Source: an uncultured Hormoscilla sp.
GTDB lineage: Bacteria > Cyanobacteriota > Cyanobacteriia > Cyanobacteriales > Desertifilaceae
Direction: 5' to 3'
DNA: 64,000 bases
Assembly (NCBI GenBank): GCA_963921275.4
Contig: OZ001293.3
Span: 3,872,001-3,936,000 of the forward strand
The position numbers were made by a program, and so were the translations under genes. Every line of letters begins with the position of its first letter. The stretch's first letter is position 1. The notes under the pieces are model-generated. The model saw nothing but the letters and a program-made list of their open reading frames with translations, searched no databases and was not told the origin of the DNA. This document shows, in pieces, positions 6,701 through 35,010 of the stretch.

Positions 6701-8463
6701 GCAAGGCGCTTCCAGCACCGGACGGACAAAGGGATGAAGACTCTGGTTTTGTCGCCCCCAGAACTCCTACAGAAGAAACATTGGCAGCTATCTGGAGCGA
6801 GATTTTGAGGGTTGAACGAGTAGGGGTTTGCGACAACTTCTTTGCCTTGGGTGGAGATTCGATCGTTAGCATTCAAATTATCGCTAGGGCCAATCAAGCG
6901 GGTTTGAAGTTGACACCCAAACAGCTATTCCAGTATCAGACGATCGCCGAATTGGCAGCAGTGGCCAGCACGACTGCCGCGAGACAAGCGACACAGGGTT
7001 TGGTGACGGGTTCGGCCCCCCTGACTCCCATTCAACATTGGTTTTTCCAGCAGGATTTACCCGCACCTCATCACTTCAATCAATCAGTCCTGTTGTCGGT
7101 GCCTCCAGACTTGCAGCCGCAGCTTTTAGAACAGGCTGTTCAAAAAATCTTAAGCCATCACGATGCCCTGCGATCGCGATTTATCGCCTCTGACACCGGT
7201 TGGCAGCAAGTTTATGCTACCCCAGACGAACAGATACCTTTCCAAGTCGCGGATCTGTCCGCTATTCCCCTCGCAGAACAGTCAGGACAGATGGAGGCGA
7301 TCGCGAATGAAATTCAAGCGAGTTTGCACCTGTCATCGGGACCGATAATGCGAGTGGTGCTGTTTCAGTTGGGGAGCGATCGGCCTGGTAGAATGCTAAT
7401 AGTCATCCATCACTTAGCAGTTGATGGCGTGTCCTGGCGCATTCTGCTAGAAGACTTGTCAACCGCTTACCAGCAGGAGGCCCTTCCGCCCAAAACTACC
7501 TCTTTCCAAGATTGGGCTAACCTGTTGACTGAATACGCGCGAACCGTTCCGGAAAAATCGGAAACAATCTCCAAAGAGTTAAACTACTGGCTAACCCAGT
7601 CGAGCACCAATATTGATTCGATCCCGGTGGACTATCCCGAGGGCAAGCAGGCCAACAGTTTTGGCTCCAGTCGCACGGTATCGGTATCATTAACGGAGGC
7701 AGAAACTCGGATCTTGCTGCAAGAAGTACCCAAGGCTTATAATACTCAGATTAATGACGTGCTGCTGACGGCATTAGTACTCAGCTTTGCCAAATGTACT
7801 GGCAGTAAATCATTGTTGGTGGACTTAGAAGGCCACGGCAGGGAAGAATTATTTGCCGATAGCGCCAGCGTAGACTTATCCCGGACTGTGGGTTGGTTTA
7901 CAACTTGTTTTCCGGTATCCTTGCAACTGGAGTCCGTTGACGATCTCTCTGATGCACTTAAATCGATCAAAGAGCAGCTGCGGAGCATACCTTCTAAAGG
8001 AATTGGTTATGGCCTCCTGCGCTATCTCAGTTCCGATGCGGCCACCCGCCAGACACTGGCAGATCAAACCCCATCTGAAATTAGTTTTAACTATTTAGGT
8101 CAATTTGCCGCTTCTAATGGGTTGCGATCGGGTACGATGGCATGGGGTATAGTGAGGGAAGCAACCGGCGAAAATCACAGTCCATTAGGTATTCGCGCTC
8201 ATCTACTGGATGTTAACGGATTAGTAGTTGCCGGACGGCTGCAAATGGATTATATTTACAGTGAAAACGTTCATCAACGAACAACTGTCGAACGCCTGGC
8301 TAAAACCTTTATAGAGACCTTAAAGTCCCTGAGCGACCACTGCACAGCACCGGAGGTGGGAGGCGATACCGCTTCAGACTTCTCGGCAGCAAGGTTAAAT
8401 CAACAACAGCTAGACAGTTTCCTGGCCAAAATCAAGAAACCCAAATCTGAGAAGAAAAAATAA
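3718..8463 (+). CDS. Single-module NRPS C(LCL)-A-PCP-E with C-terminal COM-donor tail; A code read by eye DAFFLGLTFK (Ile/aliphatic)
   Basis: HHIISDGWS; YTSGSTGKPKG; YKTGD; GGDSI PCP (typical before E domains); HHLAVDGVSW, EGHGRE, RTVGWFT (E domain); GGDTASDFSAARLNQQQLD tail. Confidence 0.95.
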   Translation: MSDLQKRLEKLSPAQRELVLKKLQAQKQNLKPQAKVPARAPVSRDQPIPLSWNQQRLWFLEQLEGSSSTYNIPAAVELVGDLNLTALEQGIQEIVRRHEVLRTNFTSKDGLPVQQIAPELKLHIAVIDLKSDTEGDEEVKEKAIAEVQKPFDLAKDPLLRVTLLRREPSSHVLLLTMHHIISDGWSMGILITELSQLYRAFSFQAPSPLPELPFQYADFAVWQRQWLSGETLETQLNYWKETLSGAPELLELPTDLSRPPLQKFRGSSIKFNLSAELTKKLQIIAEKSEATLFMILFSALVTLLYRYTAQEDICIGTPIANRNRAETESLIGFFINTLVLRADLTGDPTFSELIARVRQKAIDAYDRQDVPFEQVVEALQPSRSLSYSPLFQVMFALQNAPMGELELPGLTLKPLVQDSLTAKFDLTISMWETDAGLAGSWEYNSDLFDRETSDRTIGHFQTLLAGIVANPDWPIGELPLLTAEENQLFESWNNTKTNYPADKSIGELFERQVEKTPDAIAVTYGREQLTYKQLNCRANQLGHYLQARGVGPEVLVGLCVDRSLDAIVAMLGIIKAGGAYVPIDPDYPQDRIAYILSDARVPVLITQSTRRANLPEHQAVLVCLDTDWQEISTCSSDNIKSEVKPTSLAYLIYTSGSTGKPKGVAVVQQAISRLVFETNYVQLQPTVPEKSDCMAQASNISFDAATFEIWGALLHGAKLVGITKEVLLSPEALANQLREQKIAILFVTTALFNQLVSVVPDIFQHLSTLLFGGEAVDPSWVATVLEKGPPRRLLHLYGPTESTTFSTWYLVESVPAGATNLPIGSPISNTTIYVLDRHLQPVPIGVPGELYIGGDGLARGYLNRPELTAARFIDNPFGSGRLYKTGDLVRYLPDGNIEFKGRIDNQVKVRGFRIELGEIEALLSKHPQVREAVVIVREDQPGNKRLTGYVLPYLEPPTSSALRGFLKERLPEYMVPAAFVIMEALPLTPNGKVERKALPAPDGQRDEDSGFVAPRTPTEETLAAIWSEILRVERVGVCDNFFALGGDSIVSIQIIARANQAGLKLTPKQLFQYQTIAELAAVASTTAARQATQGLVTGSAPLTPIQHWFFQQDLPAPHHFNQSVLLSVPPDLQPQLLEQAVQKILSHHDALRSRFIASDTGWQQVYATPDEQIPFQVADLSAIPLAEQSGQMEAIANEIQASLHLSSGPIMRVVLFQLGSDRPGRMLIVIHHLAVDGVSWRILLEDLSTAYQQEALPPKTTSFQDWANLLTEYARTVPEKSETISKELNYWLTQSSTNIDSIPVDYPEGKQANSFGSSRTVSVSLTEAETRILLQEVPKAYNTQINDVLLTALVLSFAKCTGSKSLLVDLEGHGREELFADSASVDLSRTVGWFTTCFPVSLQLESVDDLSDALKSIKEQLRSIPSKGIGYGLLRYLSSDAATRQTLADQTPSEISFNYLGQFAASNGLRSGTMAWGIVREATGENHSPLGIRAHLLDVNGLVVAGRLQMDYIYSENVHQRTTVERLAKTFIETLKSLSDHCTAPEVGGDTASDFSAARLNQQQLDSFLAKIKKPKSEKKK

Positions 8464-8474
8464 CAGACAGGGAC

Positions 8475-8503
8475 TTGACAACGAGCTGAGAGATGGCTAT
8501 CAT
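8475..8503 (+). promoter_or_regulatory. Sigma70-type promoter TTGACA-N17-TATCAT; repeated at 8714 (TATCGT), 8953, 9192, 9431, 9670, 9909, 10148, 10387
   Basis: ttgaca acgagctgagagatggc tatcat: perfect -35, 17-nt spacer, 5/6 match at -10. Confidence 0.75.
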
Positions 8504-8516
8504 ATAGAAGTAGCTT

Positions 8517-10375
8517 GTGAATGAAGGGCGGCTGAACGGCTGGCTAAGACATGAGACCTTAAAGTACCCGATAGACCACTGCGCAGCACCGGAGGTGGGA
8601 GGCGATACCGCTTCAGACTTCTCGGCAGCAAGGTTAAATCAACAACAGCTAGACAGTTTCCTGGCCAAAATCAAGAAACCCAAATCTGAGAAGAAAAAAT
8701 GACAGACAGGGACTTGACAACGAGCTGAGAGATGGCTATCGTAGAGAAGTAGTTTGTGAATGAAGGGCGGCTGAACGGCTGGCTAAGACATGAGACCTTA
8801 AAGTACCCGATAGACCACTGCGCAGCACCGGAGGTGGGAGGCGATACCGCTTCAGACTTCTCGGCAGCAAGGTTAAATCAACAACAGCTAGACAGTTTCC
8901 TGGCCAAAATCAAGAAACCCAAATCTGAGAAGAAAAAATAACAGACAGGGACTTGACAACGAGCTGAGAGATGGCTATCATATAGAAGTAGCTTGTGAAT
9001 GAAGGGCGGCTGAACGGCTGGCTAAGACATGAGACCTTAAAGTACCCGATAGACCACTGCGCAGCACCGGAGGTGGGAGGCGATACCGCTTCAGACTTCT
9101 CGGCAGCAAGGTTAAATCAACAACAGCTAGACAGTTTCCTGGCCAAAATCAAGAAACCCAAATCTGAGAAGAAAAAATGACAGACAGGGACTTGACAACG
9201 AGCTGAGAGATGGCTATCATATAGAAGTAGCTTGTGAATGAAGGGCGGCTGAACGGCTGGCTAAGACATGAGACCTTAAAGTACCCGATAGACCACTGCG
9301 CAGCACCGGAGGTGGGAGGCGATACCGCTTCAGACTTCTCGGCAGCAAGGTTAAATCAACAACAGCTAGACAGTTTCCTGGCCAAAATCAAGAAACCCAA
9401 ATCTGAGAAGAAAAAATGACAGACAGGGACTTGACAACGAGCTGAGAGATGGCTATCATATAGAAGTAGCTTGTGAATGAAGGGCGGCTGAACGGCTGGC
9501 TAAGACATGAGACCTTAAAGTACCCGATAGACCACTGCGCAGCACCGGAGGTGGGAGGCGATACCGCTTCAGACTTCTCGGCAGCAAGGTTAAATCAACA
9601 ACAGCTAGACAGTTTCCTGGCCAAAATCAAGAAACCCAAATCTGAGAAGAAAAAATGACAGACAGGGACTTGACAACGAGCTGAGAGATGGCTATCATAT
9701 AGAAGTAGCTTGTGAATGAAGGGCGGCTGAACGGCTGGCTAAGACATGAGACCTTAAAGTACCCGATAGACCACTGCGCAGCACCGGAGGTGGGAGGCGA
9801 TACCGCTTCAGACTTCTCGGCAGCAAGGTTAAATCAACAACAGCTAGACAGTTTCCTGGCCAAAATCAAGAAACCCAAATCTGAGAAGAAAAAATGACAG
9901 ACAGGGACTTGACAACGAGCTGAGAGATGGCTATCATATAGAAGTAGCTTGTGAATGAAGGGCGGCTGAACGGCTGGCTAAGACATGAGACCTTAAAGTA
10001 CCCGATAGACCACTGCGCAGCACCGGAGGTGGGAGGCGATACCGCTTCAGACTTCTCGGCAGCAAGGTTAAATCAACAACAGCTAGACAGTTTCCTGGCC
10101 AAAATCAAGAAACCCAAATCTGAGAAGAAAAAATGACAGACAGGGACTTGACAACGAGCTGAGAGATGGCTATCATATAGAAGTAGCTTGTGAATGAAGG
10201 GCGGCTGAACGGCTGGCTAAGACATGAGACCTTAAAGTACCCGATAGACCACTGCGCAGCACCGGAGGTGGGAGGCGATACCGCTTCAGACTTCTCGGCA
10301 GCAAGGTTAAATCAACAACAGCTAGACAGTTTCCTGGCCAAAATCAAGAAACCCAAATCTGAGAAGAAAAAATAA
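8517..10375 (+). other. Eight identical 61-aa micro-ORFs ending in the NRPS COM-donor tail (translation uncertain)
   Basis: ORF track; GTG start ~14 nt after the -10 box with no SD; C-terminal ~40 aa match the 3718 NRPS terminus. Confidence 0.4.
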
Positions 10376-10819
10376 CAGACAGGGACTTGACAACGAGCTG
10401 AGAGATGGCTATCATATAGAAGTAGCTTGTGAATGAACGGCGGCTGAACGGCTGGCTAAGACATTCACCAGAGATATTAAAGTCCTCGATCGCTCAGAAA
10501 TGCGGTGACTGTGTCCATTGACAGGAAATGCACCTCATTTTTGCAAAAACACACTTGTTTGAAGGCTGGAACCCTTATTATATTCTTACCTGAGTTGCAG
10601 AAACCCGGTTTCTTATCTGTATGATTAGACAACTACTTTTGACCACACCCTCTTGATAATGACCTTAGAGGTTGCTATCATAGAGAAGTAAAGGCTGAGT
10701 AGGTGAGATGGGAGAAGTGATAACGGTGGGTGGCATAATAACCAGCCATGAATGATGGACAGAGAGACCCATAGAGTAACAGAATAAAGTTGAGAGAATT
10801 GAAAAAGGAGAGTACAATA

Positions 10820-13036
10820 ATGGACAATAAGTGGGAGCAATCGAATAAAGCATACAATATCGGTGACATAGTTGTATTTGAAGGTCGAAGATATAAGTGT
10901 ATCCAGGCTCATACAACTAACGGCGATTATAACTGGAATCCAGCAACTGCTCAAAGTTTGTGGGCACAGTATACGAGGCAATCAACTTCACAGGGGCAAT
11001 TAACTTCACAAGACATAGAAGAATTCAAGAAGAAATTCAACGAACGGAGGCAGTTCTATAAGATCCCAGGAGCAGCATTAGGGATTGTCCAAAATGGTCA
11101 AGCGATCGTGCAAGAAGGATTTGGTAAGCGAAATCTAGAATCTTCTTCAGCTGATGTGACAAAAGAAACGATTTTCGCCATAGGTTCAATGAGCAAGTCA
11201 TTGACAGCTTTGATGATCGGCACCCAAGTAGAGGCTGGTTTATATAATTGGGATACTCAAGTTAGTCAAATTAGTCCAGTGTACAAATTTAATCAATACA
11301 AGGAAATAACGGTAGCTGATTTATTGGGCATGCATTCCGGTCTAGAGGGGGCATTGAATTTTCAATATATCGATCTCGGGAAGAATCTGTTTGGTTATAA
11401 TGCCAGATACTGGAACGAACAAACGCCAATTTATCTGATAGAAAATCTCTCCTATTTGCCAGCTCCAAAAGGCAAAAAAGGGGAATATTTATACAATAAC
11501 GAATTATTTGCAAGCGGGGGTTATCTGACGCCGTTGAAAAACAAAAAGCCCACATCCCAATTATTGCAAGAATATAGGAAATTAATGCAGGATAAAGTAT
11601 TTAAGCCTATTGGTATGACAAGCACCAACATTACGGGGATGTTATCAAGTGTTAGCGATAACTATGCAATCAGCTACGGTCTGGACATGAGTGGGGGGGA
11701 AGCCAAAATTTTTAACAAAGGTGGGATCAGTATTAGCGATATTAATGGCGTGGCCCCAGCCGGTCAGGTGGTTACCAACGTTGAAGATATGAACCGTTAC
11801 CTGATTACCCTTTTGAAAGGCGGATGCAACCCCGAGGGCTCTCAAGTGATTAAGTCTGAAACTTTGCAGAAACTTTGGGATATACAAGGCAAGACCCTTA
11901 AAGACAATAGTAATAAGGAGGGGATTACGGGGAAGACAACCTACGGAATGGGTTGGTGGGTAGAAAAAATTTCCCGGAAATCTAATCCGAACGAAATCGT
12001 CACAGTCAAGCATCATGGCGGTTATTTACCATCTTGGTCCTGCATGCAGATGCTAGTTCCAGAGCAAAATGCTGGCATGGTGATTCTCACCAATAGTTGT
12101 TTTGGTCGGGAGTTTACGATGGAAATGAATCAAGAGCTGCTTAACTTGCTCTATAACTCAGATTTCAACAAAGACATTTTTATTGACAATCAAAAATATC
12201 ATGAAGGATTTCTGACAAAGTTAAAGGAGGCAATAGCCCAAAAAGTGTCAATAGCGGTACAAGACGAAAACAAAGTAGCAGAGGAAAAGAAAAAAGCTGA
12301 GAAGATTATAGGTAATTATGAAGGGGGGTGGAATTTAAATTATGATTCGGTAGATAAATGCTTGGTGCTGTATAAACAAGGCTGGATTGCTCGCTTGGCT
12401 CCTTCTAAAAATCCTGGCGATAAATATGTCTATTACATGGTAGCGTCGAACGATCACAGGGGAATGCACGTCACAAACAAAGAAGATATTTATGGAGCCG
12501 GTAAAATTTGGTTTACAAAAATTAAGGATATGAATAATATCGATCTGATGATGTATGGGGCAAAAGTTGGAGCAATCAAGAAATTGCCAGAGACGTCAAC
12601 AAAGAAGACAATATCTGAAATATTAGAATCGGAATATGACAAAGAGCGGTTTCAGCAGCTCAAAAATATATATTATCAAGAATGCGCAAAAAAACAATTG
12701 AGGGATATTATTGAGTTATTTTCAGATGACAAGAAATTACTGAATTTAAAACAGGAAAAAAAAGATGCGGTGAAAAAGAAGTTGGAGGAGGCGAAAAAAG
12801 AATTAGAGTCGGCCATTGGTAATATCACAGGGTCTTCACCAACAGAAGCAGCAGCAGCAGAGCAGCAGACGAACGAAAAAATCTCGATGATTATTTTAGA
12901 CGACGGTGACACCGAAATCACACCGGTGGAAGAAGTAACAATAATCTTAGATGATATTCCTGATAACAGCGAAAGTGACACCGAAATATCACTGGAAACA
13001 ACAATTGAGTTAATGAGAGAGATGCAAAGGGATTAA
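10820..13036 (+). CDS. Beta-lactamase/PBP-like serine hydrolase with N-terminal CBM5/12 (chitin-binding type) module and a coiled-coil/acidic C-terminal tail
   Basis: AAGGAG RBS; WEQSNKAYNIGDIVVFEGRRYKCIQAHT..WNP..SLW; GSMSK (SxxK), YNN (YxN), HHGG; no signal peptide. Confidence 0.88.
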   Translation: MDNKWEQSNKAYNIGDIVVFEGRRYKCIQAHTTNGDYNWNPATAQSLWAQYTRQSTSQGQLTSQDIEEFKKKFNERRQFYKIPGAALGIVQNGQAIVQEGFGKRNLESSSADVTKETIFAIGSMSKSLTALMIGTQVEAGLYNWDTQVSQISPVYKFNQYKEITVADLLGMHSGLEGALNFQYIDLGKNLFGYNARYWNEQTPIYLIENLSYLPAPKGKKGEYLYNNELFASGGYLTPLKNKKPTSQLLQEYRKLMQDKVFKPIGMTSTNITGMLSSVSDNYAISYGLDMSGGEAKIFNKGGISISDINGVAPAGQVVTNVEDMNRYLITLLKGGCNPEGSQVIKSETLQKLWDIQGKTLKDNSNKEGITGKTTYGMGWWVEKISRKSNPNEIVTVKHHGGYLPSWSCMQMLVPEQNAGMVILTNSCFGREFTMEMNQELLNLLYNSDFNKDIFIDNQKYHEGFLTKLKEAIAQKVSIAVQDENKVAEEKKKAEKIIGNYEGGWNLNYDSVDKCLVLYKQGWIARLAPSKNPGDKYVYYMVASNDHRGMHVTNKEDIYGAGKIWFTKIKDMNNIDLMMYGAKVGAIKKLPETSTKKTISEILESEYDKERFQQLKNIYYQECAKKQLRDIIELFSDDKKLLNLKQEKKDAVKKKLEEAKKELESAIGNITGSSPTEAAAAEQQTNEKISMIILDDGDTEITPVEEVTIILDDIPDNSESDTEISLETTIELMREMQRD

Positions 13037-13247: not shown

Positions 13248-13302
13248 GCAGAAACTGAAGTCATGGCTCTTTGGAATGGTTTGTCTTTACTTTTTTAGTA
13301 TA

Positions 13303-14321
13303 ACCTAAGTTGCGACCTATTAAAAAAAATATGAATTACCCACTTAGACTTTACAGATATTTGGGATATTTCGTAGCTTTTGATACAAAATTATATTTTT
13401 TTTGTGCTAGACGGCGGGTTGGCTGTTTATAGGTTATAATGTACTAAAATAATAGTTAATTGCTGGGGGATGTAGATGATGGAAGATATGATTACAACAA
13501 TTTTTGTTCTTTGTGACGAGCTACTAAAAGCGTTAAATATAAAAGAAGATCCACAAGTAAAAATGAACAATGCCGAAGTGATGACAGTCGGATTAGTTGC
13601 TGCATATTTTTTCGGAGGACACCACGATCGCTCTTGTCAATTTATGGTCGAACACAAGTATATAAAAAATCTGTTAAGTAAAAGTAGGTTCAATCGTCGA
13701 TTACACAATATTGACGAACCAATTTGGATGTTTTTCTTCCAAGTTATAGCGTTATAGCTCAAACATTTAAAGAGCTCAATCCGGGTCAAGAATATATTCT
13801 TGATAGTTTCCGGTGCCAGTATGTGATAATATTAGGATTGATAGATGCCAAATTTATAACAAGGAAGAATATCGAGGGTATATTGCCAGTAAAAAACGTT
13901 ATTTTTATGGATTAAGAGTTCATATGTTGGTAAACAAAAATGGAAAGCCAATAGAATTTTATCTAGATCCTGGTAGTTATAATGATTTTAAAGTTTTACA
14001 ATCTTTTGGCTTTGACTTACCATCAAATTCAATAGTTTATGGAGATAAAGCTTATAATGATTATCAATTAGAGGATTTACTAAAAGAGTCGTCAAGTATA
14101 ATGTTAAAACCTTTGCGAAAAAAGAACTCAAAAAGAAAAGAATATTCTTGTTTTGAATATATACAAAAAGTAACAAGAAAACAAGTTGAAACCTGTTTTA
14201 GTCGAATCACCAATTTGTTTCCCAAGTCAATTCATGCTGTTACATCTAAGGGATTAGAGTTGAAAATAATTCTCTTTATCATAGCTTTTTGTATCCAATT
14301 TTTATAGGTCGCAACTTGAGT
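13303..14321 (+). mobile_element. IS982-family insertion sequence
   Basis: TIRs acctaagttgcgacctat / ataggtcgcaacttgagt; 7-bp target duplication TAGTATA (13296-13302, 14322-14328); AT-rich. Confidence 0.9.
13476..14307 (+). pseudogene. IS982 transposase with two frameshifts
   Basis: Pieces in three frames: LSKSRFNRR / YILDS / PVCDNIRI..GYIASKKRYFYGLRVH..YGDKAY..RKQVETCFS. Confidence 0.88.
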
Positions 14322-14384
14322 TAGTATAGAACCCGAAGAGCTTTTCTGTATGACTGGTGCTAAAAGCTACTTTCCAAACATCCT

Positions 14385-14823
14385 CTCAGAAGAAAAAATA
14401 CCAGACCCCGGACTTGACAACGAGGAATGGAGATGGCTATAGTAGAGAAGAAGCTTGTGAATGTTGGGCAGAGCAACGGCTGGCTAAGGCATTTACCTCC
14501 AGACATTAAAGTCCCCGATCGCTGCGCAGCACCGGAAGTGGGAGGATATCCTGCTTCAGACTTCTCCGCAGCAAGGTGAAATCAACAACAGCTAGACAGT
14601 TTCCGGCAAAAATCAAGAAAGCCAAATCTGAGAAGAAAAAATAACAGACAGGGACTTGACAACGAGCTGAGAGATGGCTATCGTAGAGAAGTAGCTTGTG
14701 AATGAAGGGCGGCTGAAGGGCTGGCTAAGACATTCACCAGAGACCGAGACGTCCCCGATCGCTGCACAGCACCGGAAGTGGGAGGCGATACCGCTTCAGA
14801 CTTCTCCGCAGCAAGGTGAAATC
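14385..14823 (+). repeat. About two diverged copies of the 239-bp unit, each retaining a promoter-like motif (14414 TTGACA-N18-TATAGT; 14656 TTGACA-N17-TATCGT)
   Basis: Shared blocks gacttgacaacgag, gcttgtgaatg, ggctggctaag, gcagcaccggaagtgggagg, gcttcagacttctc; a further remnant cagctagacagttt at ~15052. Confidence 0.9.
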
Positions 14824-14855
14824 TGACCAAAATTAAATAAATCAGAGGGGGAAAA

Positions 14856-25406: not shown

Positions 25407-26942
25407 ATGGCACGTGAATTGTCTCAGAGCGATTTAGCAACATTCAATCAAAAGGTTTTGGAGACTAAGGATAAATATAAAGTACCAGGGGCCTCGGTGA
25501 CCATCGTACAGAACAACAAATTAATCTTTGCCTCAGGGTATGGCGTGCGCAATATAGAGACGAAGGAACCGATGACCCCAGAAACAGTTTGTCCCCTAGG
25601 CTCAATGAGCAAGTCATTTACAGCGCTGATGAATGCTACCCAAGTAGACGAGGGACATTTTACCTGGGATACATTGGTGAAAGACATTAGCCCAATATAT
25701 GAGTTTCCCAATGCCTCATGCGCGGACCAGATCAAGGTGTATCATTTAATGAATATGTCCACTGGTATGGGCGAGCCCGCGAGTATTTACGACCATGTCG
25801 GTGAATATGAAGAGAATTACATTTACTGGAACGATCAGTCTCCAGCATACGTGATTAAATCATTGACAACTGCACCCATTAAGGGAGAACCGGGAACTGT
25901 ATTTTATTACAACAATGAGGTATATTCATGTGCGGGTTATTTAAGCCCGTTGCAGCAGGGCACAGACCCATCCAAAATGCTCTAAGCTTACAAGGATTTG
26001 ATGTACAAAAAGGTATTTAATCCTATTGGGATGACAAGCACCCACATCACACCAGACATCTCCAGCATCACCAAAAATTATGCCGTTAGTTACGGAGTAA
26101 AAGTCCAGAATAATACTATTGGGCCACTGGAAATGGGTTGCAATTCCATTAACAGCATTAATGGAATTGCTCCAGCTGGTCAGATTGTTTCCAATGTTAT
26201 GGACCTGAGTCTTTATGCCATGACGTTGTTAAATGATGGTGTTGTGCCCTCAAGCGGACATCGAGTAGTCAGTACGGAAAATTTGCAAGAACTTTGGAAA
26301 TCTCGCATTGACACGAAGGGCGGAATTCCAGGTCTTACCAATGATGTTCACTATGGCTTAGGCTGGGAAATCGATAAAGTCACTGACAAAAACCACAGCT
26401 TTGAAGTCTACTGTCATGGTGGGTTTCTGCCAGCCTGGTTATCGTGGATACAGGTAGTCCCAGATTCTAATGTCGGATTGGCCATCCTCACCAACAACTG
26501 GTCTGGCCGATATCTGGCAATGGAAATGGGACAAGAATTGCTCAAATTGGTTTACGGTGAAGACTTAAAATTCGATGTTGATGTTAACAAATATTACCAA
26601 AACACAATTCAAAAGTTAATAGCAGATCAGGGACCCCTGCCTTCTTCTTATCAGGTCGAACGAGATGATGTTGCCCCTATTATAGGTAACTATCATGGGG
26701 GCTGGACTGTGGAAGTTGACAAGAAGAATTACCTCGTGCTGTATAAAACTGGCTGGATTTATTATTTGTTTCCCACTCAAGCAGGCCCAGTTGTTAAAGG
26801 GAAAAATCAATTCGTCATCTGGGCATCCAATCACAACGGGTATTTGAAAGGGAAGGAAAACAAAGTTGACTTCTACATTGATTCTGTCTGGGGAGTCACC
26901 ATGACATCTGCGATGGGAGAAGTGAAACGCTGGGCGGCATAA
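25407..26942 (+). pseudogene. Beta-lactamase/PBP-like serine hydrolase broken by one in-frame TAA (25983-25985)
   Basis: ORFs 25407-25985 and 25998-26942 share a frame; ctc TAA gct aligns with ctg CAA gct in the 15096 paralog; GSMSK, YNN, HGG intact. Confidence 0.88.
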
Positions 26943-27028
26943 TAATCACTCATGATGGGCATCTCTTGACTTGATGTCTATCTTCGAGTGACAGCATGAA
27001 GTTGAGGGATTTGCATAAGGAGAGTAGA

Positions 27029-28573
27029 ATGACGGATAACCAGAATAATTTGGCTAACAACCAGAGTGGGTTAGATTACAACGCATTAGACGAGTTTGAG
27101 CAAAAATTTGAAGAAGAACGAATATATTACCAGGTTCCTGGTGCAGCATTAGCGATCGTGTATGGAAACGAATTAATTAAAGCTAGTGGCTATGGCGTGC
27201 GGGACATAAAAACACAGGAACCGGTGACCGCAGAAACAGTTTTCCCGATCGGTTCAATGAGCAAATCAATGACCAGCATCATGAATGCGACCCAAGTGGA
27301 GGCCGGGATATTTGGTTGGGACACATTGGTGAAGGACATTAGCCCGCAGTTTAAGTTTGCTAATCAGCAAACCACAGACAATCTCCAGGTGCAGCACGTA
27401 ATCGGGATGCGTGCTGGCATACAAGATCCGATCGGCCCTTACCACTATGCTAATAACAAATATTGGGAGGAACAGTCAGCACCGTATTTAGTCAAGTCCT
27501 TGGCCACGGCCCCTTTTCAGGCAATAACTGGAAAGGTATTTCACTACGGCAACGAATCTTATGCCAGCAGTGGTTACTTCTCTCCGTTGAAGCGGGGTTT
27601 AGAGGCATCGCAATTGCTGCAAGAATACAAGAATTTGATGCGTCAGAAGATATTTAAACCCATTGGGATGACAAAGACCAGCATTACACCAATTTGTTCA
27701 AGCATTAGTGACGACTATGTAACAAGCTACGGACTAGATACTAGCAATGGACGGGCAAGTATGATGGCACAAGCCCCCATCAGCATTAGCAATGTTAATG
27801 GCATCGCGCCAGCAGGTCAAGTAGTCTCAAATGCTATGGACTTGAGTCTTTATGCCCGGATGTTGTTAAACAATGGTGTGGCGATTAATGGCACGCAAAT
27901 CATCACCGCAGAAAGTCTGAACAAGATTTGGAGTGACACAATTGATGCCCCTGACTTCCCCGGTCTGACTAACACGACTAAATATGGTCTGGGTTGGGAG
28001 ATCCAAGAAGTTGAACTAACAAACCCAAACCGCAAAATTGAGGCGATCGCCCATGGGGGTCTTCTTCCGGCTTGGGTAACTTGGCTGATGGTAGTTCCAG
28101 ATCAACGTTTCGGATTGGTGGTCCTCACCAATAGTTGGTCTGGTTTCTACTTTATATTCGAGATGGCGCAGGAGTTTATGAAAGTGATTTACGGCAGCAG
28201 CAATATTGATGACTCGCAATTCATCAATTATCGTCAACAATACCAGGCATACGTCGAGGAATTGCCGAAAAAAATTCAGGAGAAAGTCTCATCATATAAA
28301 GTTCAACGGAACGAAGTAGAATCACTGTTGGGAAACTACGAAGGGGGCTGGAACGTAGAAGTAAACGAGTCAAATCAATTGGTTTTGTTTAAGTCAGGAT
28401 GGGTTCATTACCTGTTTCCTAGCAAAGCGGGTCAAAACCAATACATTATCGGGGCCAGCAACGACAATATATATCTAAACGAGAAACGACATGATGTCAG
28501 CTTCTCCATTGACCCCAATACATCAAAGATGACTATGCATTCAGCAATGGGCAACGTTGCCAAATTAGTCTAG
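27029..28573 (+). CDS. Beta-lactamase/PBP-like serine hydrolase, copy 1
   Basis: AAGGAG RBS before MTDNQ; GSMSK, YGN, HGG; no signal peptide. Confidence 0.9.
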   Translation: MTDNQNNLANNQSGLDYNALDEFEQKFEEERIYYQVPGAALAIVYGNELIKASGYGVRDIKTQEPVTAETVFPIGSMSKSMTSIMNATQVEAGIFGWDTLVKDISPQFKFANQQTTDNLQVQHVIGMRAGIQDPIGPYHYANNKYWEEQSAPYLVKSLATAPFQAITGKVFHYGNESYASSGYFSPLKRGLEASQLLQEYKNLMRQKIFKPIGMTKTSITPICSSISDDYVTSYGLDTSNGRASMMAQAPISISNVNGIAPAGQVVSNAMDLSLYARMLLNNGVAINGTQIITAESLNKIWSDTIDAPDFPGLTNTTKYGLGWEIQEVELTNPNRKIEAIAHGGLLPAWVTWLMVVPDQRFGLVVLTNSWSGFYFIFEMAQEFMKVIYGSSNIDDSQFINYRQQYQAYVEELPKKIQEKVSSYKVQRNEVESLLGNYEGGWNVEVNESNQLVLFKSGWVHYLFPSKAGQNQYIIGASNDNIYLNEKRHDVSFSIDPNTSKMTMHSAMGNVAKLV

Positions 28574-28601
28574 TTTGGTAATTAGACATAAGCCTTCTGA
28601 T

Positions 28602-28640
28602 GACCTCAGACCTCAGCCATTGACGCTGATGTCTGAGGTC
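28602..28640 (+). terminator. Stem-loop after the hydrolase (also at 31085 and 33568); possible terminator or stabiliser
   Basis: gacctcagacctcagc-cattgac-gctgatgtctgaggtc; no U tract. Confidence 0.45.
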
Positions 28641-28803
28641 TGATAGCTAAATAATGACAATTATCTGGCGTAAGCTGTCGTGCATTTAAATTGCATAGCT
28701 TCAGATCCTTGCTCTCTATGACTTTCCCAATGCAAGAATTTTGAATGAGAGAATTTTGAATTGCTTAGAGACTGGTGAGGGAAAAAATCAGGCGATCGAA
28801 GGC

Positions 28804-28832
28804 TTGACAGTATGATGATTGTTGGCTATAGT
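28804..28832 (+). promoter_or_regulatory. Sigma70-type promoter TTGACA-N17-TATAGT (also at 31287-31315 and 33770-33798)
   Basis: ttgaca gtatgatgattgttggc tatagt, ~40 nt upstream of the ATG at 28875/31358/33841. Confidence 0.72.
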
Positions 28833-28874
28833 ATTTTGTGACCTATAAATTTGGCCAGCTCTGTAAGTTCAAAT

Positions 28875-29330
28875 ATGATGAAGATCGAAAAGACAAGCTT
28901 ATTGCTAAGCATAGGATGTTGCATAATCATCATCTGCTTATATCTGACTAAAATTGTCCCAACGGTAGCCGCAGAGATGCCAAAGGATTTTAGTTCAAAT
29001 TTGTTTGAGACTAAGTCGCTAGTTAACACTTCTGGCAACACCTATCTAATGGACAAGCATGCTTGGACAATATTTGCTCAAATCAATCAGAAAGCACCTA
29101 GACAATGTCCAGGGACAAATAATAGTATTTGGGAAACTTGGGCCGATAACGGGGAGACCTTTCTACGGGAAAAACCAACATGGGCTGGACTGTGGAAGTT
29201 GACAAGAAGAATTACCTCGTGCTGTATAAAACTGGCTGGATTTATTATTTGTTTCCCACTCAAGCAGGCCCAGTTGTTAAAGGGAAAAATCAATTCGTCA
29301 TCTGGGCATCCAATCACAACGGGTATTTGA
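28875..29330 (+). pseudogene. Junction chimera: 5' ~100 codons of the 33841 gene fused out of frame to the hydrolase 3' fragment (second copy 31358-31813)
   Basis: Identical to the 33841 gene up to ...REKPTW, then diverges at the repeat junction. Confidence 0.85.
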
Positions 29331-29511
29331 AAGGAAAGGAAAACAAAGTTGACTTCTACATTGATTCTGTCTGGGGAGTCACCATGACATCTGCGATGGG
29401 AGAAGTGAAACGCTGGGCGGCATAATAATCACTCATGATGGGCATCTCTTGACTTGATGTCTATCTTCGAGTGACAGCATGAAGTTGAGGGATTTGCATA
29501 AGGAGAGTAGA

Positions 29512-31056
29512 ATGACGGATAACCAGAATAATTTGGCTAACAACCAGAGTGGGTTAGATTACAACGCATTAGACGAGTTTGAGCAAAAATTTGAAGAAGA
29601 ACGAATATATTACCAGGTTCCTGGTGCAGCATTAGCGATCGTGTATGGAAACGAATTAATTAAAGCTAGTGGCTATGGCGTGCGGGACATAAAAACACAG
29701 GAACCGGTGACCGCAGAAACAGTTTTCCCGATCGGTTCAATGAGCAAATCAATGACCAGCATCATGAATGCGACCCAAGTGGAGGCCGGGATATTTGGTT
29801 GGGACACATTGGTGAAGGACATTAGCCCGCAGTTTAAGTTTGCTAATCAGCAAACCACAGACAATCTCCAGGTGCAGCACGTAATCGGGATGCGTGCTGG
29901 CATACAAGATCCGATCGGCCCTTACCACTATGCTAATAACAAATATTGGGAGGAACAGTCAGCACCGTATTTAGTCAAGTCCTTGGCCACGGCCCCTTTT
30001 CAGGCAATAACTGGAAAGGTATTTCACTACGGCAACGAATCTTATGCCAGCAGTGGTTACTTCTCTCCGTTGAAGCGGGGTTTAGAGGCATCGCAATTGC
30101 TGCAAGAATACAAGAATTTGATGCGTCAGAAGATATTTAAACCCATTGGGATGACAAAGACCAGCATTACACCAATTTGTTCAAGCATTAGTGACGACTA
30201 TGTAACAAGCTACGGACTAGATACTAGCAATGGACGGGCAAGTATGATGGCACAAGCCCCCATCAGCATTAGCAATGTTAATGGCATCGCGCCAGCAGGT
30301 CAAGTAGTCTCAAATGCTATGGACTTGAGTCTTTATGCCCGGATGTTGTTAAACAATGGTGTGGCGATTAATGGCACGCAAATCATCACCGCAGAAAGTC
30401 TGAACAAGATTTGGAGTGACACAATTGATGCCCCTGACTTCCCCGGTCTGACTAATACGACTAAATATGGTCTGGGTTGGGAGATCCAAGAAGTTGAACT
30501 AACAAACCCAAACCGCAAAATTGAGGCGATCGCCCATGGGGGTCTTCTTCCGGCTTGGGTAACTTGGCTGATGGTAGTTCCAGATCAACGTTTCGGATTG
30601 GTGGTCCTCACCAATAGTTGGTCTGGTTTCTACTTTATATTCGAGATGGCGCAGGAGTTTATGAAAGTGATTTACGGCAGCAGCAATATTGATGACTCGC
30701 AATTCATCAATTATCGTCAACAATACCAGGCATACGTCGAGGAATTGCCGAAAAAAATTCAGGAGAAAGTCTCATCATATAAAGTTCAACGGAACGAAGT
30801 AGAATCACTGTTGGGAAACTACGAAGGGGGCTGGAACGTAGAAGTAAACGAGTCAAATCAATTGGTTTTGTTTAAGTCAGGATGGGTTCATTACCTGTTT
30901 CCTAGCAAAGCGGGTCAAAACCAATACATTATCGGGGCCAGCAACGACAATATATATCTAAACGAGAAACGACATGATGTCAGCTTCTCCATTGACCCCA
31001 ATACATCAAAGATGACTATGCATTCAGCAATGGGCAACGTTGCCAAATTAGTCTAG
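29512..31056 (+). CDS. Beta-lactamase/PBP-like serine hydrolase, copy 2
   Basis: Protein identical to copy 1. Confidence 0.9.
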   Translation: MTDNQNNLANNQSGLDYNALDEFEQKFEEERIYYQVPGAALAIVYGNELIKASGYGVRDIKTQEPVTAETVFPIGSMSKSMTSIMNATQVEAGIFGWDTLVKDISPQFKFANQQTTDNLQVQHVIGMRAGIQDPIGPYHYANNKYWEEQSAPYLVKSLATAPFQAITGKVFHYGNESYASSGYFSPLKRGLEASQLLQEYKNLMRQKIFKPIGMTKTSITPICSSISDDYVTSYGLDTSNGRASMMAQAPISISNVNGIAPAGQVVSNAMDLSLYARMLLNNGVAINGTQIITAESLNKIWSDTIDAPDFPGLTNTTKYGLGWEIQEVELTNPNRKIEAIAHGGLLPAWVTWLMVVPDQRFGLVVLTNSWSGFYFIFEMAQEFMKVIYGSSNIDDSQFINYRQQYQAYVEELPKKIQEKVSSYKVQRNEVESLLGNYEGGWNVEVNESNQLVLFKSGWVHYLFPSKAGQNQYIIGASNDNIYLNEKRHDVSFSIDPNTSKMTMHSAMGNVAKLV

Positions 31057-31994
31057 TTTGGTAATTAGACATAAGCCTTCTGATGACCTCAGACCTCAGC
31101 CATTGACGCTGATGTCTGAGGTCTGATAGCTAAATAATGACAATTATCTGGCGTAAGCTGTCGTGCATTTAAATTGCATAGCTTCAGATCCTTGCTCTCT
31201 ATGACTTTCCCAATGCAAGAATTTTGAATGAGAGAATTTTGAATTGCTTAGAGACTGGTGAGGGAAAAAATCAGGCGATCGAAGGCTTGACAGTATGATG
31301 ATTGTTGGCTATAGTATTTTGTGACCTATAAATTTGGCCAGCTCTGTAAGTTCAAATATGATGAAGATCGAAAAGACAAGCTTATTGCTAAGCATAGGAT
31401 GTTGCATAATCATCATCTGCTTATATCTGACTAAAATTGTCCCAACGGTAGCCGCAGAGATGCCAAAGGATTTTAGTTCAAATTTGTTTGAGACTAAGTC
31501 GCTAGTTAACACTTCTGGCAACACCTATCTAATGGACAAGCATGCTTGGACAATATTTGCTCAAATCAATCAGAAAGCACCTAGACAATGTCCAGGGACA
31601 AATAATAGTATTTGGGAAACTTGGGCCGATAACGGGGAGACCTTTCTACGGGAAAAACCAACATGGGCTGGACTGTGGAAGTTGACAAGAAGAATTACCT
31701 CGTGCTGTATAAAACTGGCTGGATTTATTATTTGTTTCCCACTCAAGCAGGCCCAGTTGTTAAAGGGAAAAATCAATTCGTCATCTGGGCATCCAATCAC
31801 AACGGGTATTTGAAAGGAAAGGAAAACAAAGTTGACTTCTACATTGATTCTGTCTGGGGAGTCACCATGACATCTGCGATGGGAGAAGTGAAACGCTGGG
31901 CGGCATAATAATCACTCATGATGGGCATCTCTTGACTTGATGTCTATCTTCGAGTGACAGCATGAAGTTGAGGGATTTGCATAAGGAGAGTAGA

Positions 31995-33539
31995 ATGACG
32001 GATAACCAGAATAATTTGGCTAACAACCAGAGTGGGTTAGATTACAACGCATTAGACGAGTTTGAGCAAAAATTTGAAGAAGAACGAATATATTACCAGG
32101 TTCCTGGTGCAGCATTAGCGATCGTGTATGGAAACGAATTAATTAAAGCTAGTGGCTATGGCGTGCGGGACATAAAAACACAGGAACCGGTGACCGCAGA
32201 AACAGTTTTCCCGATCGGTTCAATGAGCAAATCAATGACCAGCATCATGAATGCGACCCAAGTGGAGGCCGGGATATTTGGTTGGGACACATTGGTGAAG
32301 GACATTAGCCCGCAGTTTAAGTTTGCTAATCAGCAAACCACAGACAATCTCCAGGTGCAGCACGTAATCGGGATGCGTGCTGGCATACAAGATCCGATCG
32401 GCCCTTACCACTATGCTAATAACAAATATTGGGAGGAACAGTCAGCACCGTATTTAGTCAAGTCCTTGGCCACGGCCCCTTTTCAGGCAATAACTGGAAA
32501 GGTATTTCACTACGGCAACGAATCTTATGCCAGCAGTGGTTACTTCTCTCCGTTGAAGCGGGGTTTAGAGGCATCGCAATTGCTGCAAGAATACAAGAAT
32601 TTGATGCGTCAGAAGATATTTAAACCCATTGGGATGACAAAGACCAGCATTACACCAATTTGTTCAAGCATTAGTGACGACTATGTAACAAGCTACGGAC
32701 TAGATACTAGCAATGGACGGGCAAGTATGATGGCACAAGCCCCCATCAGCATTAGCAATGTTAATGGCATCGCGCCAGCAGGTCAAGTAGTCTCAAATGC
32801 TATGGACTTGAGTCTTTATGCCCGGATGTTGTTAAACAATGGTGTGGCGATTAATGGCACGCAAATCATCACCGCAGAAAGTCTGAACAAGATTTGGAGT
32901 GACACAATTGATGCCCCTGACTTCCCCGGTCTGACTAATACGACTAAATATGGTCTGGGTTGGGAGATCCAAGAAGTTGAACTAACAAACCCAAACCGCA
33001 AAATTGAGGCGATCGCCCATGGGGGTCTTCTTCCGGCTTGGGTAACTTGGCTGATGGTAGTTCCAGATCAACGTTTCGGATTGGTGGTCCTCACCAATAG
33101 TTGGTCTGGTTTCTACTTTATATTCGAGATGGCGCAGGAGTTTATGAAAGTGATTTACGGCAGCAGCAATATTGATGACTCGCAATTCATCAATTATCGT
33201 CAACAATACCAGGCATACGTCGAGGAATTGCCGAAAAAAATTCAGGAGAAAGTCTCATCATATAAAGTTCAACGGAACGAAGTAGAATCACTGTTGGGAA
33301 ACTACGAAGGGGGCTGGAACGTAGAAGTAAACGAGTCAAATCAATTGGTTTTGTTTAAGTCAGGATGGGTTCATTACCTGTTTCCTAGCAAAGCGGGTCA
33401 AAACCAATACATTATCGGGGCCAGCAACGACAATATATATCTAAACGAGAAACGACATGATGTCAGCTTCTCCATTGACCCCAATACATCAAAGATGACT
33501 ATGCATTCAGCAATGGGCAACGTTGCCAAATTAGTCTAG
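31995..33539 (+). CDS. Beta-lactamase/PBP-like serine hydrolase, copy 3
   Basis: Protein identical to copy 1. Confidence 0.9.
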   Translation: MTDNQNNLANNQSGLDYNALDEFEQKFEEERIYYQVPGAALAIVYGNELIKASGYGVRDIKTQEPVTAETVFPIGSMSKSMTSIMNATQVEAGIFGWDTLVKDISPQFKFANQQTTDNLQVQHVIGMRAGIQDPIGPYHYANNKYWEEQSAPYLVKSLATAPFQAITGKVFHYGNESYASSGYFSPLKRGLEASQLLQEYKNLMRQKIFKPIGMTKTSITPICSSISDDYVTSYGLDTSNGRASMMAQAPISISNVNGIAPAGQVVSNAMDLSLYARMLLNNGVAINGTQIITAESLNKIWSDTIDAPDFPGLTNTTKYGLGWEIQEVELTNPNRKIEAIAHGGLLPAWVTWLMVVPDQRFGLVVLTNSWSGFYFIFEMAQEFMKVIYGSSNIDDSQFINYRQQYQAYVEELPKKIQEKVSSYKVQRNEVESLLGNYEGGWNVEVNESNQLVLFKSGWVHYLFPSKAGQNQYIIGASNDNIYLNEKRHDVSFSIDPNTSKMTMHSAMGNVAKLV

Positions 33540-33840
33540 TTTGGTAATTAGACATAAGCCTTCTGATGACCTCAGACCTCAGCCATTGACGCTGATGTCT
33601 GAGGTCTGATAGCTAAATAATGACAATTATCTGGCGTAAGCTGTCGTGCATTTAAATTGCATAGCTTCAGATCCTTGCTCTCTATGACTTTCCCAATGCA
33701 AGAATTTTGAATGAGAGAATTTTGAATTGCTTAGAGACTGGTGAGGGAAAAAATCAGGCGATCGAAGGCTTGACAGTATGATGATTGTTGGCTATAGTAT
33801 TTTGTGACCTATAAATTTGGCCAGCTCTGTAAGTTCAAAT

Positions 33841-35010
33841 ATGATGAAGATCGAAAAGACAAGCTTATTGCTAAGCATAGGATGTTGCATAATCATCATC
33901 TGCTTATATCTGACTAAAATTGTCCCAACGGTAGCCGCAGAGATGCCAAAGGATTTTAGTTCAAATTTGTTTGAGACTAAGTCGCTAGTTAACACTTCTG
34001 GCAACACCTATCTAATGGACAAGCATGCTTGGACAATATTTGCTCAAATCAATCAGAAAGCACCTAGACAATGTCCAGGGACAAATAATAGTATTTGGGA
34101 AACTTGGGCCGATAACGGGGAGACCTTTCTACGGGAAAAACCAACATGGCCGGAAGTCTGTGGGACTGCCGAGGCCCCGCGCCGGAAGATACTTAGAGAG
34201 CGCAGCATCAACTTATTTCTGGAAGCAGAAGAAAAACAGACAATTCTCGGAGCAGAATTGATTGATTCTTCCGAAGAAAAAGCCGAAGAAGTCCGCCGCA
34301 ACCGCGCCACCTTTGACTATATAGTCAATAATGACCTCTGGAATAGGGAGGGTTTAATCAAAGCCTATGCTAGTGATGAAAAAATTGAGTTTCCTGCTAA
34401 GGCGATTGAAGTCAAAGCTGATTGGGTGCCAATTCGCGAATCAGAAAAGCCTAATTATCACTGGAATTACACCCAAGATGGAACTCTGGTTGGCATGCGG
34501 GCCATGCACGTGATCTCCAAAGAGTTGCCAAACTGGTTCTGGGCGAGCTTTGAATGGGTTGACAACCTAGGACGCTGCGATGACATCGGCTGTGTGGATA
34601 ACTTTGGGGTAACTCCCCATGTCGTCCAACCAAACGATACGACAAATCTCAAATATCCTCCGGGGCAATTAACCCCAGAACTGGAGCAATTATTTGCTGC
34701 TTACGGACTAACAGGAGAATGGGGCGAGCAATTTAAGAACTACCGCCTGAAGGGAACTCAAATCAACTTTATTGATGTGACAGGAAGCCCAATACTGTTG
34801 GGGAATTCAATCACAGAACAGGGGTCGGTCTTGGGCTCTTCATGTATAACTTGCCACGCCCAGGCAAGGATTGATGCGGACGGTCGCACAACACGAGTTT
34901 TGGAGTTAGTTGGAGCCCCTGTGCCGGAAATGTTCGAACAATTAAAGGCAACGGGTTTTGTTTGGTCAATCCCATTGTGTGTAAACTATCCTTGGGCTTG
35001 TAAAAGCTGA
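33841..35010 (+). CDS. Exported protein with one C-terminal CxxCH (putative c-type heme protein)
   Basis: Hydrophobic N-terminus ending ..VAA-E; WFWASFEW; LLGNSITE..SSCITCH; extra Cys pairs. Confidence 0.65.
   Translation: MMKIEKTSLLLSIGCCIIIICLYLTKIVPTVAAEMPKDFSSNLFETKSLVNTSGNTYLMDKHAWTIFAQINQKAPRQCPGTNNSIWETWADNGETFLREKPTWPEVCGTAEAPRRKILRERSINLFLEAEEKQTILGAELIDSSEEKAEEVRRNRATFDYIVNNDLWNREGLIKAYASDEKIEFPAKAIEVKADWVPIRESEKPNYHWNYTQDGTLVGMRAMHVISKELPNWFWASFEWVDNLGRCDDIGCVDNFGVTPHVVQPNDTTNLKYPPGQLTPELEQLFAAYGLTGEWGEQFKNYRLKGTQINFIDVTGSPILLGNSITEQGSVLGSSCITCHAQARIDADGRTTRVLELVGAPVPEMFEQLKATGFVWSIPLCVNYPWACKS

Follow-up and report, generated by a model that had tools for sequence, protein, structure and literature searches.

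PBP-like hydrolase genes and two tandem amplifications in a hybrid PKS/NRPS cluster of an uncultured Hormoscilla sp.

The hydrolase genes and the synthetases around them

The DNA analysed here, called the window, is a stretch of 64,000 nucleotides from an uncultured Hormoscilla sp. (assembly GCA_963921275.4, contig OZ001293.3, positions 3,872,001 to 3,936,000) that carries the downstream half of a hybrid polyketide synthase/nonribosomal peptide synthetase (PKS/NRPS) cluster, with six genes for hydrolases resembling penicillin-binding proteins (PBPs). Two of them, PBP1 and PBP2, lie between NRPS1, a synthetase ending in an epimerisation (E) domain, and its partner NRPS2, and the other four, PBP3 and three copies of PBP4, follow the terminal thioesterase (TE) of NRPS2 (Table 1). 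The domain order is C-A-T-E (condensation, adenylation, thiolation, epimerisation) for NRPS1 and C-A-KR-T-TE, with a ketoreductase (KR), for NRPS2. Regarding the family assignment, the intact genes match PF00144 with 104.6-155 bits against a gathering cut-off of 27, the C-terminal half of the PBP3 pseudogene reaching 49.6, and the residues S87, K90, Y184, N186, H353 and G355 of the SxxK/YxN/HxG motifs are invariant in a 23-sequence alignment. PBP1 is built from a CBM_5_12 domain, the PBP domain, a barrel and an acidic/coiled linker of about 200 residues, ending in the tail ...ISLETTIELMREMQRD. PBP3 is a single frame interrupted by one TAA codon (25983-25985), at which intact orthologues have Gln, and the three PBP4 proteins are identical.

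A hydropathy scan found neither a hydrophobic N-terminus nor a transmembrane-like segment in the PBP-like proteins, the peak 19-residue Kyte-Doolittle mean being 0.90-1.37 in the four protein types, compared to 2.46-2.78 in three neighbouring membrane proteins. Lacking an export signal, the enzymes probably reside in the cytoplasm. Thus, the initial annotation, which had described six SxxK/YxN/HxG hydrolase genes at this locus, two between an E-ending synthetase and its partner and four after the TE, one of them (at 25407) with a nonsense codon and none with a signal peptide or membrane anchor, is borne out on these points. The CBM_5_12 domain of PBP1 occupies 10820-10990; in MAG82, the nearest relative, it is found on the other, non-orthologous inter-NRPS paralogue (locus L015, 9839-10000), and it is absent from the Microcoleus and Tolypothrix copies. 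Recombination of similar 5' regions seems to have carried the domain from one paralogue to another, an odd acquisition for proteins without an export signal.

The second condensation-type domain of NRPS1 contains the motifs PIQxWF, HHxxxDG, EGHGRE, GWFT and FNYLG, and the N-terminus of NRPS2 (...IEDIYELSPMQ...) pairs with the COM-donor-like helix that ends NRPS1, while the TE of NRPS2 has the motif GWSLG. The specificity codes of the last two amino-acid modules, read by hand (Table 1), are presumed to be Ile-like by comparison with known codes, and NRPS1 would epimerise its residue, judging from the T-E order and the motifs. Since an Ile-like code is combined with an E domain, the residue passed on by NRPS1 should be D-allo-Ile, which NRPS2, from its C-A-KR-T-TE order, would esterify to a reduced 2-keto acid.

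Table 1. Coordinates of the hydrolase genes, repeat units and neighbouring features, counted from the first base of the window.
Feature	Position	Strand	Evidence and remarks
PBP1, inter-NRPS long type	10820..13036 (alternative start 10790)	+	PF00144 E 9.2e-37; N-terminal CBM_5_12 E 1.3e-13
PBP2, inter-NRPS short type	15096..16892	+	PF00144 E 3.7e-45; Pro/Ala linker, tail ...VSKETTRYLLRNLQLD
PBP3, post-TE paralogue A', pseudogene	25407..26942	+	pieces 25407-25985 and 25998-26942, PF00144 E 7.8e-30 and 4.2e-13
PBP4 copy 1, post-TE paralogue A	27029..28573 (alternative start 26996)	+	PF00144 E 9.3e-45
PBP4 copy 2	29512..31056 (alternative start 29479)	+	PF00144 E 9.3e-45
PBP4 copy 3	31995..33539 (alternative start 31962)	+	PF00144 E 9.3e-45
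Three tandem 2,483-bp units	26699..34149	+	each with PBP3 3' end, PBP4 and 5' third of the 397-aa gene
Tandem 239-bp units	8314..10464	+	period 239, 9.0 copies, 99% matches (assembled sequence)
About two diverged 239-bp unit copies	14384..14823	+	upstream of PBP2; 91.6% to unit 9; internal repeat 14384-14583 vs 14627-14823
62-aa tail-only open reading frame	14856..15044	+	PBP start (MTE...) fused to linker and tail ...VSKETMRYLIRSLQLD
NRPS1, C-A-T-E, COM-donor-like C-terminus	3718..8463	+	Pfam domains and E-domain motifs; hand-read code DAFFLGLTFK
NRPS2, C-A-KR-T-TE, COM-acceptor-like N-terminus on C	19017..25229	+	Pfam domains
NRPS_C (C-A-T), 3' end	1..453	+	gene starts outside the window; hand-read code DAFFLGVTFK
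Carbamoyltransferase	434..2323	+	Carbam_trans_N E 9.3e-121, Carbam_trans_C E 5.9e-75
413-aa membrane-anchored protein	2466..3707	+	without Pfam family; precedes NRPS1 in orthologous clusters, 66-69% identity (L013, L014, L015)
Insertion sequence, DDE transposase in pieces	13301..14324	+	between PBP1 and PBP2; about 100 near-identical genome copies
Membrane-anchored GDSL/SGNH-like protein, 394 aa	17011..18195	+	found in the window only, not in orthologous loci
397-aa membrane-anchored protein, CxxCH motif	33817..35010	+	downstream in orthologous clusters; partial copies begin 28851, 31334
MFS transporter	39079..40440	+	likely end of the cluster

Fold, family and conserved tail

The AlphaFold2 model of PBP4 (pLDDT 86.7) consists of the PBP domain, connected by a helix to a beta-barrel at the C-terminus (residues 446-523), the predicted fold being that of a PBP domain with a lipocalin-like barrel, as in Pab87, IS11, Lip3 and SurE. 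The structural Z-scores are 39.0 for Pab87, 38.2 for the IS11 esterase, 36.6 for the Lip3 DL-peptidase (405 residues aligned), 34.1-34.8 for SurE and 34.3 for the R61 DD-peptidase, and full-length structure matches include 6ksu, 2qmi and 7spn. ClbP is not among the 50 entries listed by VIA-align, and ranks 19-47 in Foldseek (E about 5e-18 to 1.2e-17). By sequence, the best match is 2qmi (Pab87, E 3.1e-13), 6ksu (SurE) being matched at E 2e-4. Judged on sequence as well as structure, the family appears closer to Pab87 and IS11 than to SurE or ClbP. The two comparisons first drawn for these proteins, a fold shared with SurE and a build unlike that of the exported and membrane-anchored ClbP, agree with the model and with the missing hydrophobic N-terminus and transmembrane segment, respectively; the closest matches, however, appear to be Pab87 and IS11. 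Pab87 is described as a cage protease specific for D-amino-acid peptides (PMC2651629), and ClbP as a periplasmic protein with three C-terminal transmembrane helices (PMC9889268).

A profile search of 1.84 billion representatives placed four proteins, each representing one paralogue type, at 747-826 bits, with the next protein at 448 bits, the clade comprising four 50%-identity clusters among these representatives. All of the named members belong to Microcoleus, Tolypothrix or one cyanobacterial metagenome-assembled genome (MAG). The family is confined to this locus in the window genome and was not found in 40 relatives of that genome; as only 3 of 401 genomes sampled across the cyanobacterial phylum carry it, each from a different family, its distribution is patchy. 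A signal-peptide-like hydrophobic N-terminus is present in 38 of the 40 next-best proteins and in no clade member, thus the clade looks like a secreted hydrolase taken into the cytoplasm.

DNA context was available for 14 genes at 9 loci of six other genomes, and in eight of the nine loci the copies follow the NRPS1 orthologue and/or the NRPS2 orthologue, the ninth being a 4.7-kb contig with two copies and an NRPS1 3' remnant only. This supports the proposed tie of the hydrolases to the NRPS pathway, the homologues standing beside orthologous synthetases instead of being mostly unlinked to them. The gene for the 397-aa protein also follows in every locus that reaches past the last hydrolase or NRPS2 gene (six of six: L007, L008, L009, L012, L013 and L015, from five of the six genomes), and in Microcoleus the hydrolase gene (MTD...) starts 9 nt past the NRPS1 stop. 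In the phylogenetic tree, the inter-NRPS clade (13 rows) has a support of 99/99 and the post-TE clade (14 rows) of 96/88, the latter dividing into two old paralogues, A and A'. The inter-NRPS duplications are lineage-specific on the tree, one common to the window and MAG82 and others in Tolypothrix and Microcoleus F10-A1, where the duplicated piece again includes an E-domain 3' remnant. Three Microcoleus genomes retain the inter-NRPS copy only, and no post-TE paralogue is present in the clusters of Microcoleus F6_B6 and F4-D5.

The inter-NRPS members are further distinguished by a C-terminal tail of the pattern (I/V)S-x-E-T-T-x-x-(L/I)-x-x-x-x-Q-L-D (in short form ...ETTRYLxxNxQLD), which window PBP1 ends with MQRD instead. 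All 13 inter-NRPS members have the tail, which the 14 post-TE members lack, and it is preceded by 50-200 residues that are Pro/Ala-rich, acidic or coiled-coil-like. Across the genome, only three instances of the pattern are found, in PBP1, in PBP2 and in the 62-aa open reading frame between them, which MAG82 has in the same place (dS 0.64 and dN/dS 0.37 over 59 codons, without a stop), a small sample that serves as a lead only. With conserved residues at the very end of the chain and a flexible linker before them, the tail resembles a docking peptide. When it was compared with the COM-donor end of NRPS1 by tblastn, no match had E < 0.1. The end of the carbamoyltransferase, ...QFELD, which resembles the tail of the PBP-like proteins, was considered as a docking motif and rejected, ...EFELD being the usual end of that family (4 of 6 homologues listed, including copies outside the cluster).

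The two amplifications and the rest of the cluster

Each unit of the 239-bp array comprises the last 150 nt of NRPS1 (...ETLK...SDFSAARLNQQQLDSFLAKIKKPKSEKKK, stop) and an 89-nt spacer, which opens with ATGACAGAC, overlapping the NRPS1 stop codon; unit 1 is the true gene end. A similar overlap-like layout is seen in Microcoleus, between NRPS1 and the hydrolase gene that begins 9 nt after its stop. Units 4-8 are identical, and units 1, 2, 3 and 9 differ at 6, 3, 1 and 2 places, respectively. Every unit has the hexamers TTGACA-17-TATCAT (TATCGT in unit 2), and further copies of the spacer lie directly before PBP1 (10653) and before PBP2 (14414, 14656). The RNA fold of one 239-nt unit is no better than that of shuffles (z -0.88). 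Nine tandem promoters had been proposed here in the initial annotation: nine units with promoter-like hexamers are indeed found, but they are mostly the NRPS1 3' end with its 89-nt spacer, and a promoter role, being a consensus match only, is unproven.

The second amplification was first described as a triplication of one hydrolase gene, and its three units are confirmed, with copies that are near-identical and not strictly identical: copies 2 and 3 are the same, and copy 1 differs at two bases, one of them silent in PBP4. At the junction 29182/29183, the 5' third of the 397-aa gene runs into the PBP3 pseudogene's 3' end, with the microhomology CATGG between them; this junction is bridged by contigs of four runs from three studies, with 474 nt (X1), a 58-nt unitig (X3), 420 nt (X5) and 273 nt (X6), of which X1 and X3 may be source data of the genome assembly. 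As a result of the triplication, PBP4 is present three times, the full 397-aa gene once and its partial form twice. Contig depth was also tried as a copy-number measure and is not relied on, as it does not equal copy number: the X3 values for the junction unitig, the unit and unrelated contigs (90.9, 137.3 and about 38.5) would fit two junctions and three units, and those of X1 (83.3, 119.4 and about 59) do not. Because the triplication begins inside the dead PBP3, it may compensate for the loss of that gene, and could equally be neutral.

Two orthologous loci scanned for tandem repeats, L015 and L010, lack these arrays, thus the amplifications look strain-specific; both look like recent tandem duplications of this strain, for which selection for dosage is a plausible hypothesis. 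A dispersed element of about 37 nt (...AGAATTTTGAATGAGAGAATTTTGAAT...) lies at 28728-28766 and in the two other unit copies, and contigs of the runs often end or branch there. It has 30 matches by blastn-short, the 8 of 30 listed being three at the locus and five elsewhere on the chromosome. A further pair of repeat arrays, of 7 and 14 nt (GTCAGTA, TAGTCAGTTGTGGG), is present at 18174-18445, between the GDSL-like gene and NRPS2. In MAG82, a 108-bp unit is repeated 2.1 times (L015, 5882-6103) where the tblastn match to NRPS1 breaks (5874 to 6055), which may be an insertion in the synthetase gene or a problem of the MAG assembly.

The chromosome that carries the window has 6.88 Mb and 47% G+C, compared to 17.6% in C3, a 31,420-bp contig among the seven of the assembly. 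The cluster starts about 25 kb upstream of the window, with a C-A-MT-T gene, KS-AT-KR-DH, ER-ACP, a free C domain with a TubC-type docking domain, a CmlA-like hydroxylase and two more synthetases, and continues over window bases 1-40440. In the window, the end of a C-A-T synthetase is followed by the carbamoyltransferase, the 413-aa membrane protein, NRPS1, the two inter-NRPS PF00144 genes and NRPS2, then by the four post-TE PF00144 genes, the 397-aa membrane protein, a GT2 and LPG-synthase-like pair, a 573-aa protein on the opposite strand and the major facilitator superfamily (MFS) transporter. No ABC or membrane-fusion export genes are found in the window; an Rfam scan of 1-41000 gave 0 matches, and all matches of an NCBIfam scan were far under their cut-offs.

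Regarding the individual neighbours, the 413-aa and 394-aa membrane-anchored proteins have a common GDSL/SGNH-like block (BLASTP E 4e-06). The 397-aa protein, which belongs to no Pfam or NCBIfam family, carries a membrane segment at its N-terminus and the CxxCH motif CITCH; in the Atlas it neighbours clusters without names, apart from one automatically labelled as cytochrome c family. Near the Microcoleus clusters, the carbamoyltransferase is present only as stop-bearing fragments (G041:C3:229462-230182; G045:C25:49781-50498), with intact 670-aa copies on other contigs. The genome is rich in the insertion sequence (IS) found between PBP1 and PBP2, as blastn gives 101 matches, and the 25 of 101 listed, the element included, are all chromosomal with at least 98% identity. 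A gene for a group II intron reverse transcriptase/maturase (L016, 664-2001) lies about 39 kb upstream of the window start.

Reading of the locus and comparison with known systems

The linkage to the synthetases, the near-coupling to NRPS1, the loss of the export signal, the build shared with SurE and Pab87 and the conserved tail argue for a pathway enzyme that works at the synthetases. It is tentatively suggested, as a reading that is quite possible, that the PBP-like proteins are cytoplasmic enzymes dedicated to this pathway which attack the carbonyl of D-allo-Ile, with part of the paralogues tethered to the assembly line. They would form an S12 branch with the PBP domain and lipocalin-like barrel, derived from secreted ancestors by loss of the signal peptide, and would proceed, like other S12 enzymes, by way of an acyl-serine intermediate formed with a D-residue carbonyl, here that of the D-allo-Ile made by NRPS1. 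Since this carbonyl should be present twice, in the NRPS1 thioester and in the ester of the product, the tethered paralogues could serve for the thioester and the free ones for the product. Thus, the inter-NRPS paralogues, held at the assembly line by the flexible linker and the C-terminal peptide, would act where NRPS1 meets NRPS2 and accept the peptidyl-D-allo-Ile thioester, either to free a shorter product or to clear a line that has stalled, while the tail-less post-TE paralogues would open or trim the released depsipeptide at the D-allo-Ile carbonyl esterified to the NRPS2 hydroxy acid. The substrates, the D-specificity, a docking role for the tail and possible effects on expression are all inferred, and the clade points to an undescribed processing of D-amino-acid peptides inside the producer cell. 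The role proposed in the initial annotation, off-loading, editing or self-resistance acting on D-residue intermediates under selection for dosage, is supported in part, through the linkage, the missing export signal and the fold.

Regarding the amplifications, the 89-nt spacer of the 239-bp unit ends in a stretch repeating E-domain sequence just upstream of the unit, indicating that the array grew by unequal crossing-over of the NRPS1 3' end with an older remnant. The 2,483-bp unit would have arisen at the 5-nt microhomology, its third copy being gained later. The outcome would be a tripled dose of PBP4 beside a dead paralogue and a multiplied promoter-like spacer before PBP1.

Several observations weigh against a pathway enzyme acting on D-allo-Ile at the synthetases. 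The COM-like ends of NRPS1 and NRPS2 match and the TE of NRPS2 looks intact, leaving no need for an extra release step. The Z-scores fail to separate peptidases, esterases and cyclases, and SurE is distant by sequence (E 2e-4). The full-length model of PBP2 is poor (mean pLDDT 56.1, from a 12-row alignment), showing only a helix at 585-595 after coil in the region of the tail. A CBM_5_12 domain on PBP1 and on a non-orthologous paralogue of MAG82 hints at an extracellular life, as this domain is usual on extracellular proteins. As for a gain in dose, the orthologous spacer of MAG82 aligns but has the much weaker hexamers CTAGAC ... TACGAT, no RNA run is listed among the runs carrying the stretch 26500-29700, and one dead paralogue and an IS between two others fit decay as well as selection.

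A somewhat unlikely alternative is that all paralogues serve self-protection, as cytoplasmic D-stereospecific peptidases or esterases that destroy product accumulated in or re-entering the producer, with the amplification raising their dose. Precedent exists in the S12 D-stereospecific peptidases of NRPS clusters (TriF/BogQ type), which confer resistance, and tandem amplification, when maintained, is typical for a dose-limited enzyme. Lip3 and Lip7 are also reported to cleave lipopeptides at D-L bonds (PMC12903863), and the post-TE paralogues are dispensable in some clusters, as seen in Microcoleus F6_B6 and F4-D5. However, a cytoplasmic destroyer next to its synthetase would run a futile cycle, the inter-NRPS gene is near translational coupling to NRPS1 in Microcoleus and is the copy retained in the smallest clusters, and self-protection leaves the tail and linker without a role.

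It is unlikely, too, that the amplifications are functionless, as neutral or mildly harmful recombination by-products in a repeat- and IS-rich region of a decaying cluster. Every catalytic residue is kept in all intact paralogues, and the triplication junction is seen in runs of three studies, with copy 1 having had time to diverge at two bases. Such decay could nevertheless account for the nonsense codon of PBP3, the IS of about 100 copies between PBP1 and PBP2, the two truncated copies of the 397-aa gene produced along with PBP4, the lack of the arrays in L015 and L010, and the remnants of older duplications and deletions that are present.

A more elaborate and distinctly doubtful form of the pathway reading is a tethered branch point, where a PBP-like enzyme docked by its C-terminal peptide would intercept the D-aminoacyl thioester mid-line, setting a short product against elongation. 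The 62-aa protein would then compete for the docking site and tune the branch, the tail-less paralogues would handle the depsipeptide, and copy number would adjust the flux.

It is very doubtful that the inter-NRPS paralogues are SurE-type off-loading cyclases, freeing a head-to-tail cyclic peptide from NRPS1 next to the long product. SurE-type enzymes are described (PMC11735501) as stand-alone cyclases requiring a C-terminal D-residue, and PBP-type TEs as encoded directly after a synthetase ending in T-E, an arrangement also found here, together with stand-alone proteins modelled as a PBP domain and lipocalin-like barrel. The five characterised PBP-type TEs of that review, however, all come from other bacteria, none of them cyanobacterial. 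In addition, the match to SurE is weak, the upstream PKS modules may leave no free N-terminal amine, and the replacement of a missing cis TE, a trait of PBP-type TEs, is not seen, as the line proceeds to NRPS2, with its COM-acceptor-like start and terminal TE. The TE of the line makes a release step of the SurE type unnecessary. Least probable of all is a signal-independent export, for example by a C-terminal signal, of ClbP-like maturases or resistance peptidases acting outside the cell: CBM_5_12 on one paralogue in the window and another in MAG82, the conserved extreme C-terminus of the tailed paralogues behind an acidic or low-complexity stretch and the adjoining conserved membrane proteins would suit it, but the window lacks ABC and membrane-fusion export genes, the post-TE paralogues have neither tail nor signal, and the clade has specifically lost the signal peptide of its relatives.

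Cluster-encoded S12 enzymes are already known. In the open-access literature searched, no cyanobacterial NRPS-linked PBP-like enzyme was found, and nothing in which a PBP-type thioesterase and cyanobacteria occur together; the cytoplasmic location, the mid-line position, the paralogue sets, the tail and the cyanobacterial clade were likewise not found there. PBP-like enzymes acting on nonribosomal peptides, such as SurE-type cyclases, ClbP and D-peptidases, are wanted as biocatalysts and as genome-mining markers. If the action on the D-allo-Ile thioester or ester is true, the clade would offer a new way to branch, edit or disarm the product of an assembly line, as well as new D-selective catalysts, and the recent amplifications are a natural experiment on enzyme dose within a biosynthetic cluster.

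Among known systems, the PBP-type TEs (SurE, PenA, Ulm16, FlkO, WolJ) also stand beside a synthetase ending in T-E and act on a thioester with a D-residue. Unlike theirs, the window line continues to another module with its own TE, and the sequence similarity is marginal (E 2e-4); the window clade is also cyanobacterial, with several paralogues per cluster and a C-terminal tail behind a long linker. Pab87/CubicO (PDB 2qmi) has the same two-domain build, no export signal and, as a trait of Pab87, an S12 activity on D-amino-acid peptides, but it is a catabolic archaeal enzyme encoded beside peptide-uptake genes, with an identity of only 19-21%. ClbP has the S12 fold and a gene in an NRPS/PKS cluster, and cuts at a D-residue; in contrast, the window proteins lack a signal peptide and transmembrane segments, and the D-residue would come from the penultimate module instead of the first one. 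The TriF/BogQ type, Lip3 and Lip7 are likewise S12 enzymes that cut nonribosomal peptides at D-residues, the former being encoded, as here, in an NRPS cluster whose predicted product holds a D-residue, and the Lip3 alignment including the C-terminal part. These enzymes act outside the producer cytoplasm or in other organisms, however, and Lip3 is described with a Ser-Lys-Lys-Tyr tetrad (PMC12903863), whereas SxxK/YxN/HxG is kept in the window clade. The clade is thus distinct in being probably cytoplasmic and multi-copy, in lying between two synthetases of a TE-bearing line and in carrying, in part, a docking-like peptide.

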